Source: an uncultured Gemmatimonadales bacterium
GTDB lineage: Bacteria > Gemmatimonadota > Gemmatimonadetes > Longimicrobiales > RSA9
DNA length: 64,000 nt
Reading direction: 5' to 3'
NCBI GenBank assembly: GCA_963708135.1
Contig: OY970192.1
Span: 3,136,001-3,200,000 of the forward strand
Shown here: one piece after another, positions 52,944 to 55,148 of the stretch
How the letters are laid out: every line of letters starts with the position of its first letter
How positions within the stretch are numbered: the first letter of the stretch is position 1
Notes under the pieces: generated by a model
Database searches by the model: none
What the model was told of the DNA's origin: nothing
The model's input: the letters and a program-made list of their open reading frames with translations, nothing else
Program-made: the position numbers and the translations under genes

Positions 52944-53155
52944 GGGGAGCGCTCCTTGGGGTCCAGGCTGTGGGGGCTTCGTCGCACGGAGGAAAATAGG
53001 GCATCCGCCTGCCCATTGCGCCATGGACCTGCCCCGCCGCGCTGGCGATGCTCGCGTGGCGAGCGGGCGGCGCGTGCGAGAGTCGCGCGGCGGCGCGCAC
53101 CGGAGCCCGATCGTGGCGTCCGGCGGGCGCACACGGGAGCCCGATCGTGGCGCCA

Positions 53156-53533
53156 GCCCGGCGCACAAAAAAGTCGAACCGTCGGCCCCGGCCGCCACCA
53201 TCCGGCGATTGGATGCGCCCGGCGCACAAGAGAGCCGAACGGTCGGCCCCGGCCACCACCATCCGGCGATTGGATGCGCCCGGCGCACACAACAGCCGAA
53301 CCGTCGGCCCCGGCCGCCACCATCCGGCGATTGGATGCGCCCGGCGCACAAGAGAGCCGAACGGTCGGCCCCGGCCACCACCATCTGGCGATTGGATGCG
53401 CCCGGCGCACACAACAGCCGAACCGTCGGCCCCGGCCGCCACCATCCGGCGATCGGATGCGCCCGGCGCACACAACAGCCGAACCGTCGCCCCCGGCCGC
53501 CACCATCCGGCGATCGGATGCGCCCGGCGCACA
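53156..53533. repeat. Array C: ~6.2 x 61-bp tandem repeat upstream of DUF559 copy 2
   Basis: Units start at 53156, 53217, 53278, 53339, 53400, 53461, 53522; hairpins catcc..ggatg and tgcgc-ccg-gcgca. Confidence 0.95.
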
Positions 53534-53594
53534 TGGGATGGAGCGGGGCACGACGTGACCGTTCGCCGCGGCCCTTCCGGGAGGACTGATTACG

Positions 53595-54548
53595 ATGAGC
53601 GAAGCGGGCAATACCGGTCCGAGCCGGGATCTCGAGGACCGCGTGGCGGATGTCGCCGCCCGGCAGCACGGACTCGTCACGCGGGGGCAGCTCGTCACGG
53701 CGGGTCTGTCGTCGTCGGCCGTGGGCCGGCGACTTCGGGCGGGGCGGCTGCGGCAAATCCACCGGGGCGTCTACCGGCTCGGCCCGCTCACGGCGCCATT
53801 CGCGGCGGAGATGGCCGCAGTCCTGGCCTGTGGCTCCGAGTCCGTCGTGAGCCATCTCAGCGCCGCCGGGATCTGGGTTCCCGCGGCCGCCGAGCCGAGG
53901 CCGCGGCAACCCTCGCGAGTGGAGATCACGACGACGAGCGAGAAAGGGAGGCGTCGCCCCGGAATCCTCGTCCACCATGTGGCGCGGCTCGACCCGGACG
54001 AGCGGACGACCTGGCAGCAGATCCCGATCACCACGCCGGCGCGCACGCTGATCGATCTGGCCGGCGTAGTCGGGAGCCGGGAGCTCGAGGCGGCGTTGGC
54101 GCGGGCCGAGCGGGAAGGCCTCGTCGCCCATGGCGAGCTGCTGCGCCATCTCGAACGGCACCCGCGTCGTCCCGGAAGCGGCGTGCTGCGCGCACTGCTG
54201 GAGGCGGACGGCGACCCGGCGCTCAGCCGCTCGGCGGCCGAGGAGGAGTTTCTCGCTCTCACCATAAAGGCGCGGCTGCCGCGGCCTGCCACCAATGTCC
54301 GGATCGGCGCCTACGAGGTCGATTTCCTCTGGCGAACGAAGGGCATCGCCGTGGAGATCGACGGCTTCCGGTACCACTCGTCGCGGCCTCGCTTCGAGGG
54401 CGACCGTCGCAAGGATGCCTGGCTCCTGGCCCATGGGATCACGGTCGTGCGGCTGTCCTGGCGCCAGATCACGGAAGACGCGCTGGCGACGGCCGTTCAG
54501 ATCGCCCTCGCCCTGCACCGTGCGAGGGGCCCCGCCGCCCAACGGTGA
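53595..54548 (+). CDS. AbiEi-family N-terminal wHTH + DUF559 (Vsr-like endonuclease) protein, copy 2
   Basis: [71 protein letters not shown]. Confidence 0.92.
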
Positions 54549-54559
54549 TGGCACGCCGG

Positions 54560-54695
54560 GCCGCGGGCGCGCAAGTCTGGCCGCGCGCCGTGCCCCGGCG
54601 AGTGTGCGGCGCGACGTGTCCGCCGCGGGCGCGCAAGTCTGGCCGCGCGCCGTGCCCCGGCGAGTGTGCGGCGCGACGTGTCCGCCGCGGGCGCG
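54560..54695. repeat. ~2.2 x 62-bp perfect tandem repeat just after DUF559 copy 2
   Basis: Units start at 54560, 54622, 54684. Confidence 0.92.
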
Positions 54696-54761
54696 TCTGC
54701 AATCCGCCGCTCGAGGACATCGAAGTCCCTGAGACCACCGAATCCGGGTCGGGTCCGGCGT

Positions 54762-55148
54762 ACACAACCGCCGAACCGACCCGGCCCGGGGCGACGACCT
54801 GGCTTCCTTGTGCGCCAGCCGCACACAACCGCCGAACGGACCCGGCCGCGGGCGACGACCTGGCTTCTTTGTGCGCCAGCCGCACACAACCGCCGAACGG
54901 ACCCGGCCCGACGCGACGACCTGGCTCTCTTGTGCGCCAGCCGCACACAACGCCGAACGCGCCCGGCCCGACGCGACGACCTGGCTCTCTTGTGCGCCAG
55001 CCGCACACAACCGCCGAACGGACCCGGCCCCGGGCGACGACCTGGCTTCTTTGTGCGCCAGCCGCACACAACCGCCGAACATACCCGGCCGCGGGCGACG
55101 ACCTGGCTCTCTTGTGCGCCAGCCGCACACAACCGCCGAACGGACCCC
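54762..55148. repeat. Array D: ~6.3 x 61-bp tandem repeat, homologous to array C
   Basis: Units start at 54762, 54823, 54884, 54945, 55005, 55066, 55127; hairpin tgtgcg-ccagc-cgcaca. Confidence 0.95.

Follow-up and report, generated by a model that had tools for sequence, protein, structure and literature searches.

The focal locus and its protein

The 64,000 nucleotides analyzed here (the window) belong to the genome of an uncultured Gemmatimonadales bacterium (contig OY970192.1, positions 3,136,001 to 3,200,000 of the forward strand) and contain a gene for a protein with AbiEi and DUF559 domains, which is enclosed by tandem arrays of a 61-bp repeat. Coordinates are window positions unless marked G000:C1, which refers to the host genome; the focal gene is designated paralog A and its repeats family A. 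The 5' edge of the locus is probably formed by a promoter-like motif of the gene family (53011-53052, + strand, as are all features of the locus), consisting of CCATGG at 53021, a GCCC box and a -10-like nAnnnT hexamer; as the motif starts at 53021, ahead of the array, the focal array is situated within the leader. A 34-bp duplication of 2.5 copies at the left edge of the array (53084-53167, program TRF) scores only marginally against the family-A profile (4 bits), and the 17-mer quoted for it in an earlier sequence-only reading does occur at 53102 and 53136. The upstream family-A array, with imperfect dyads each 30.5 bp, lies between the motif and the gene (53156-53533) and comprises 6.2 x 61 bp with 92% matches in TRF, as had been read before. 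A Shine-Dalgarno-like GGAGG (53580-53584), with ATG 10 nt further on, precedes the open reading frame (ORF) of 317 aa (53595-54548). Directly 3' of the stop codon an exact 62-bp duplication of 2.2 copies (54560-54695, 100% in TRF) was recovered as described earlier, followed by the downstream family-A array (54754-55150) of six full 60-61-bp units and a partial one; here the 61-bp repeat stood, but the copy number of 6.3 did not (TRF 54762-55155, 6.5 x 61 bp, 89%). Both 61-bp arrays are homologous and constitute one family (39/61 identical in direct register, 42/61 inverted). The 62-bp repeat was also considered as a degenerate family-A unit, which was rejected with 31-32/61 matches vs shuffles reaching 29-34. 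At the array end a remnant of an alpha/beta-hydrolase gene is joined (55150-55719; Pfam, homolog comparison).

In Pfam, residues 15-62 of the protein matched AbiEi_4, residues 98-158 weakly AbiEi_1 and residues 223-306 MTES_1575/DUF559, and PADLOC models of AbiEi matched residues 12-215 (E 7e-32); NCBIfam gave no match, and a sequence search of the PDB returned nothing below E 0.3. In an AlphaFold model built with 118 homologs (mean pLDDT 90), residues 12-206 form a winged helix and the AbiEi C-terminal, nucleotidyltransferase-like (NTase-like) domain, comparable to AbiEi (6y8q; Z 12.1, root mean square deviation 4.2, 183 aligned) and Rv2827c (1zel; Z 9.1), while residues 211-312 form a Vsr/EDxHD-type nuclease, comparable to 3hrl (Z 14.1, deviation 1.8, 92 aligned), I-Bth0305I (3r3p; Z 13.4, deviation 2.5, 96 aligned) and Vsr (1cw0; Z 11.5). 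The putative catalytic residues had been read as kept, and D243, E254, D256, G257, H261 and D270 were indeed present in 118/118 aligned homologs, E216 in 117/118. Judged by the aligned ranges, the set E216/D243/E254/D256/H261/D270 would correspond to the catalytic set E170, D196, H213 and D222 of I-Bth0305I (PMC3239194). In the model, an AbiEi fold is thus joined to a Vsr/EDxHD nuclease whose active site is complete and invariant. I-Bth0305I dimerizes via its catalytic histidine (PMC3239194); a homodimer prediction for the focal protein scored 0.39, with the mark at 0.42. The middle domain of AbiEi has a nucleotidyltransferase-like fold (PMC7319586), and an active nucleotidyltransferase was considered here on the basis of a fold match to MenT1 (Z 8.6). 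It was rejected, position 110, which we infer to be the catalytic acidic site, being D in 64, H in 38 and E in 14 of the 118 sequences.

Proteins of the same architecture are numerous (at least 2,762 among 8,000 candidates scored), with source names pointing to Longimicrobiales and Solirubrobacterales and source annotations as antitoxins or very-short-patch-repair endonucleases, without partner or known target. The subfamily was present in 41/60 genomes of the host's family with one to six copies each, and in 2/150 genomes drawn across the phylum; a scan of genome contigs with the single protein gave three loci. Plasmids held no homolog (tblastn at 1e-15), and ten weak matches in viral contigs covered the C-terminal part of the protein only. 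In the host genome no AbiEii toxin (PF08843/DUF1814) was found above cut-off, one weak match lying 41 kb from the nearest paralog, and comparison of 1.5-2-kb flanks of homologs revealed no conserved neighbor gene.

Paralogs with repeat families of their own

Seven paralogs (A-G) reside in the host genome. Paralog C, likewise in the window (26574-27497, - strand), has the three Pfam domains of the focal protein and is accompanied on the same strand by a downstream family-C element (26296-26485), whose end is amplified as a 52-bp array (26147-26289), and an upstream one (27863-28045), whose end is amplified as a 54-bp array (27654-27862). The repeats at this second locus (26.1-28.0 kb) had been called unrelated to the focal ones; their sequence is different, but they share the geometry of the focal repeats. 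The view that the pairing of gene and arrays is not due to chance was borne out: TRF arrays with a score of at least 200 were detected on both sides at 3/7 paralogs vs 9/4204 called genes, and on at least one side at 6/7 paralogs vs 188/4204 genes, the genes having been called with a simple codon-model caller that is approximate and set a wrong start for the focal gene.

What the first reading overlooked is the constant part of these loci, a paralog-specific element of alternating half-sites which is dispersed genome-wide; it also missed that the periods of the flanking tandem arrays are mostly arbitrary (11-229 bp). BLAST searches from each paralog flank yielded six families with nearly no overlap between them, and six of the seven paralogs adjoin their own multi-copy family of 130-195-bp elements. 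A profile search returned 110 elements (F 28, B 26, C 24, E 19, D 7, A 6, one A match being weak), 98 of which are solo elements away from any paralog; none lies within a called ORF. One of them, a family-F element shortened by the loss of one internal palindrome, is situated in the window (19372-19521, - strand), paralog F itself lying outside. The copies of family F have a mean identity of 82%. An unbiased all-versus-all comparison of the intergenic sequence placed four paralog-linked families among its top six by size, and only 169/4204 genes have an element within 500 bp. Solo elements are located between convergent genes in 31/98 cases, compared to 154/1183 intergenic regions. Alignments of families F and E show sharp ends and a fixed length of about 185 bp, and most elements consist of three units, a length partly set by that of the profile. 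Paralog G, with one internal TGA stop, is the only paralog without dispersed copies, its element being single-copy. Paralogs B, C and E have direct-repeat elements on both sides, and four pairs of elements of different families sit adjacent to each other.

Dyad axes recur every ~30.5 bp in all six families, at 28.5, 59, 89.5, 120 and 150.5 in family A, 27, 57, 87.5, 118 and 148 in family B, 32.5, 63, 94, 125 and 155.5 in family F, and as three or four clear axes in families C, D and E. Arms of families F and B measure 20-24 bp and are separated by gaps alternating between short (3-5) and long (10-15); elements of all six families are made up of half-sites of this size (~20-24 bp) in alternating orientation, with a period of 60-62 bp. 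Four inverted repeats of 23 bp each are bound by Rv2827c, with a spacing of 13 bp inside a pair and 4 bp from one pair to the next; for AbiEi there are two such 23-bp repeats, 3 bp apart, and neither protein binds the site of the other (PMC7319586); a period of 63 bp for the Rv2827c operator is our own sum of the published arm and gap lengths. Within half-sites the best-conserved positions are those 7-18 nt from the short gap, and conservation drops off in the direction of the long gap. The families share an A/T tract, situated 8-11 nt from the short gap; in family E it is either AAA or TTT, which fits duplex readout better than base pairing. By analogy, the units would be duplex operator pairs of AbiEi type. 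Spacers of the focal array are near-identical and alternate as ABAB; no 20-mer of them was found elsewhere in the genome, and for the upstream array no phage match was obtained. This alternation of the upstream units is what duplication of a dimer, and not spacer acquisition, would be expected to give.

The promoter-like motif, its -10-like hexamer exactly 20 nt after CCATGG, was found upstream and on the same strand at 7/7 paralogs, 11/21 relative loci and 7/70 metagenome loci, with 0.02 expected per 800 nt, and again at 13/26 new loci of a further set, compared with only 3/98 solo elements. Judging from its sequence it may act as a promoter; a sigma-70 consensus scan of the focal locus found none. 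The order of array and leader differs at other paralogs, where elements also occur downstream of genes or upstream of the motif. At paralogs B, E and F the motif itself is duplicated by 66-, 21- and 84-bp arrays (G000:C1:4909207-4909494, 741499-741565 and 3379520-3379766, respectively), and at paralog G arrays of 15-43 bp fill the leader (G000:C1:4895600-4896510).

Several further observations concern the genome at large. The 1.5-Mb stretch G000:C1:1000000-2500000 holds only 7/110 elements, and its G+C content is not lower. Other large intergenic families, with 83 and 24 members (e.g., G000:C1:539811-541450 and 1173597-1174295), consist of short repeated words and lie away from paralogs. CRISPR-like arrays with unique spacers (G000:C1:3644332-3652594 and 5132958-5140181) have periods of 61 and 72-74 bp, the 61-bp period shared with the elements being probably a coincidence. 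An eighth DUF559 match (G000:C1:489679-489849) is part of a different, large protein, a 1896-aa open frame without AbiEi_4.

Recurrence in other genomes and local duplications

Homologous loci of other genomes were searched for chains of four dyads spaced 30-31 bp with a score of at least 40, a test that replaced a noisy lag score and an inverted-repeat count that was too strict. Loci of the host genome, viral matches and one duplicate were left out of the first set. The chain was present at 22/162 homolog flanks (22/100 loci) vs 0/171 controls, the threshold having been picked after the background was seen; lags outside 57-65 reached 40 in nine test and three control windows over 42 lags. With the threshold unchanged, 14/47 flanks of 26 new loci were positive in a second set, which lacked its own control. 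In draft genomes the contig often ends no more than a few hundred bases away from the homolog gene, and the count of flanking repeats is therefore probably too low. Host profiles reached at least 10 bits in flanks in 25 cases, of which 16 had the repeat type of the nearest paralog (5.1 expected), and each of the sister pairs E-L061, C-L014 and G-L029 on a quick tree had a matching repeat type. Dispersal was observed for two of seven gene-adjacent stretches tested, with 12 copies in genome G040 and three in genome G012. The other five were single-copy, among them the element of an intact paralog-G ortholog in G012; two of the five had no detected dyad chain and may not be elements.

Strong tandem arrays were detected at 11/14 paralog flanks and 40/148 homolog flanks elsewhere, compared to 5/102 far windows of the same loci and 12/400 random gene flanks. 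Judged by this excess over far windows and random gene flanks, the arrays belong to the locus of the gene family, as the sequence-only reading had proposed; it had also suggested a survey of all paralogs, and arrays did not prove equally common beside unrelated genes. Solo elements, too, are accompanied by tandem arrays (41/98 vs 56/1083 control windows and 25/229 length-matched windows). Of 50 measured arrays 27 begin within 50 bp of an element edge, and 44/58 such tandem units are absent elsewhere in the genome. Whole elements together with flanking DNA are amplified as tandem units of 229, 265-297 and 280 bp (G000:C1:4910837-4911522, 229813-230790 and 2865827-2866293).

The hydrolase remnant at the focal locus lacks about 90 N-terminal codons, its 5' third, exactly at the array end: in comparison with 119 homologs (median 273 aa) the match starts at median residue 89. 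No orphan N-terminal half was found elsewhere in the genome and no close ortholog in 60 genomes of the family. At the junction the repeat unit reads like hydrolase codons, with RTPHRQ here and RTFTHRQ in homologs, which suggests a microhomology junction. Target-site duplications were not detected at the elements, the matches of own and cross flanks amounting to 5.9/6.1 (F), 5.5/6.0 (C) and 7.2/6.4 (E); in family B the value of 9.6/7.0 was raised by few long matches, probably tandem copies of B.

The other neighbor of the focal locus is a beta-galactosidase gene, divergent from it, with a 3.3 x 33-bp in-frame repeat in its N-terminal region (52743-52852). A PIN-domain gene directly downstream of the beta-galactosidase (48565-49198), probably half of a VapBC pair, has no link to the finding. 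Short-read contigs of run X1 matched the focal gene at 100%, with some depth across both arrays, a support that is not independent because X1 may be the source sample.

Proposed mechanism, rival explanations and known systems

We lean, with modest confidence, towards operator-like arrays which are bound by the protein and whose local duplication and occasional spread are driven by its nuclease. Each unit would be an AbiEi-type operator on double-stranded DNA with one protein per half-site, whose winged helix would sit on the conserved outer end and whose nuclease would face the variable long gap, and the gene-side copy of the element would restrain expression of its own gene. Rare nicks or breaks could be repaired by host recombination or slippage, by which units are amplified and adjacent DNA is duplicated or deleted, and repair might now and then seed a whole element at another site, each paralog serving its own family only. 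Binding, cutting and movement by the protein are putative. The best reading is a stand-alone selfish or semi-domesticated gene-plus-repeat system derived from an AbiEi-type regulator. A bolder form, which we regard as possible and rather less probable, is a transcription-factor operator turned mobile, in which an AbiEi regulator joined to a Vsr-like nuclease cuts arrays of its own site that are then copied by host repair. This would be a new class of prokaryotic repeat replicator without transposase, in which protein and site co-diversify into specific pairs and each element is a local generator of tandem duplications and deletions.

Several points weigh against the favored reading. Family A is small (four to six sites), and BLAST did not recover it from any of 12 genomes of the host's family. 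Of the 100 first-set loci only 22 had a detected dyad chain, the repeat type mismatched that of the nearest paralog in 9/25 cases, related loci do not count as independent (L100 is identical to L102), and the tree is the quick one. Beyond the host genome dispersal is patchy, as the five single-copy stretches demonstrate. The broken gene is a single case, and no empty site was seen, the X1 contigs, in which none was found, not spanning the focal locus. Palindromes alone promote slippage without any nuclease, and elements may just persist in tolerant long intergenic regions. The strong single-strand fold of family F (z -4.8) also belongs here.

One rival, to which we give a minor share of the probability, takes the element as nothing but the autoregulatory site of a toxic nuclease gene; arrays and solo copies would be passive products of palindrome slippage or leftovers of cassettes whose gene was lost, and the protein would have no catalytic role in the spread. 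The operator-like geometry, the focal array between motif and ATG and the single-copy state of 5/7 stretches elsewhere agree with this, and the direct repeats around paralogs B, C and E would allow the gene to loop out and leave a solo copy. Such remnants would, however, still imply a mobile cassette; moreover, elements occur downstream of genes or upstream of the motif, the 98 solo copies favor convergent ends and keep the motif in 3/98 cases, and family F has reached 28 copies at 82% mean identity. Alternatively, instead of duplex half-sites the protein might recognize an extruded hairpin or cruciform with conserved mismatches, in single-stranded DNA or RNA, in the way that RAYT recognizes REPs or Vsr mismatches, which we consider improbable. 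Every unit is an imperfect palindrome, family F folds strongly, mismatched positions are conserved across element copies and Vsr, which nicks at T:G mismatches (PMC3239194), offers a precedent; yet the focal array folds barely better than its shuffles (z -1.8), family E sets AAA opposite AAA in the would-be stem, a fixed 61-bp period would be unneeded, and Rfam gave no match for 52900-55300 at E<=1.

More doubtful still is a toxin-antitoxin or anti-phage module, in which the repeats would keep the nuclease inactive until infection, either in RNA form (type III-like) or by acting as a DNA sponge. Its appeal stems from the PADLOC match of AbiEi models to residues 12-215 and from the focal order of promoter, 6.2 repeats and gene, which resembles toxIN (PMC3401426). 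No terminator-like site was found between array and gene (53533-53595, + strand), however, nor a ToxN-type family in Pfam or AbiEii above cut-off in the genome; at several paralogs the element lies outside the predicted transcript leader, the focal neighbors are a beta-galactosidase and a hydrolase remnant, and the 98 solo copies are left unexplained. That gene and repeats collect independently at permissive intergenic hot spots is largely refuted: tandem repeats abound in the genome (2136 TRF rows) and four pairs of different families are adjacent, but each paralog has a different family, and across genera both geometry and repeat type go with the protein.

In the mostly openly accessible papers searched, no description of an association of AbiEi/DUF559 genes with repeats was found; PMC3424549, PMC3710099 and PMC9879509 mention the domains, in their accessible text without repeats. 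Six of seven paralogs having scattered repeat families of their own suggests a little-described selfish gene-and-repeat system with an enzyme unrelated to known transposases. The present locus contributes the coexistence of protein-repeat pairs in one closed genome (six multi-copy families and a seventh single element), the conserved geometry matching operators of the AbiEi family and an excess of local duplications that was measured. Should the flanking elements prove to be binding and cutting sites, a substrate would be at hand for the family, and an enzyme for many intergenic repeats of GC-rich soil bacteria; the REPIN idea would be extended beyond HUH transposases, and a cause for the local birth of tandem repeats would be offered. 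With its six cognate protein-site pairs this one genome provides a matrix in which the specificity of binding and cleavage can be assayed, and it may also yield orthogonal DNA binders or nickases with long sites.

Membership in AbiE, type III toxin-antitoxin, CRISPR, homing endonuclease or miniature inverted-repeat transposable element (MITE) systems fails in each case on at least one defining feature. The solo elements resemble the MITEs of an autonomous insertion sequence in that they are short, have sharp ends, carry no gene and are related to the flanks of a single enzyme gene, but neither a signal of target-site duplication nor a DDE or HUH transposase was found here. Unlike in CRISPR, unique spacers between identical repeats are absent from the focal array. 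In contrast to a Vsr repair endonuclease, no cytosine DNA methyltransferase is a neighbor at the focal locus, the neighbors of other paralogs having been read as translations only. With AbiEi and Rv2827c the protein shares the two-domain fold, and the elements share alternating ~23-bp inverted repeats with short and long gaps, a similar period (63 vs 60-62 bp) and a position near the own promoter (PMC7319586); it differs in the additional C-terminal nuclease and the lack of AbiEii above cut-off, in a unit number of three to eight where those operators have one or two, in downstream and dispersed copies and in half-site sequence. I-Bth0305I and the EDxHD homing endonucleases are alike in nuclease fold, catalytic residues, a separate N-terminal DNA-binding part and, as proposed for the present system, a selfish gene acting via host repair (PMC3239194), whereas here the N-terminus is AbiEi and not NUMOD, the gene is free-standing with varied neighbors and without intron, intein or conserved host gene, and its putative target sites form multicopy repeats next to it. 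The likeness to toxIN, i.e., promoter, about six tandem repeats and nuclease gene (PMC3401426), is confined to the focal locus, since paralogs C, D and E differ; in addition, no protein of ToxN/CptN/TenpN type was found in Pfam, the chain being accounted for by other folds, and a second array downstream, other layouts at paralogs and dispersed copies set the system apart.

The system works like REPIN-RAYT but is not a member, as enzyme and element build differ. In both, a chromosomal gene has repeats of its own on its flanks, extragenic copies without the gene combine conserved arms and variable spacers, and one genome holds several gene/repeat families (bioRxiv 10.1101/2021.07.10.451892). A cognate repeat was found beside each gene, multi-copy at 6/7 paralogs and a single element at the seventh, and dispersed extragenic copies occur in the host genome, those elsewhere being single-copy in 5/7 stretches. 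With regard to repeat decay after gene loss, broken paralog G has no dispersed family, yet the element of its intact ortholog in G012 is single as well. REPIN-RAYT employs an HUH tyrosine transposase and ~100-bp elements of two inverted REP sequences with one spacer. Here the whole chain is AbiEi plus a Vsr-type nuclease, gene neighborhoods are not conserved, and the elements, usually three arm-spacer-arm units of ~185 bp, carry about six half-sites on a fixed 61-bp period, with arms that are not nested short palindromes.

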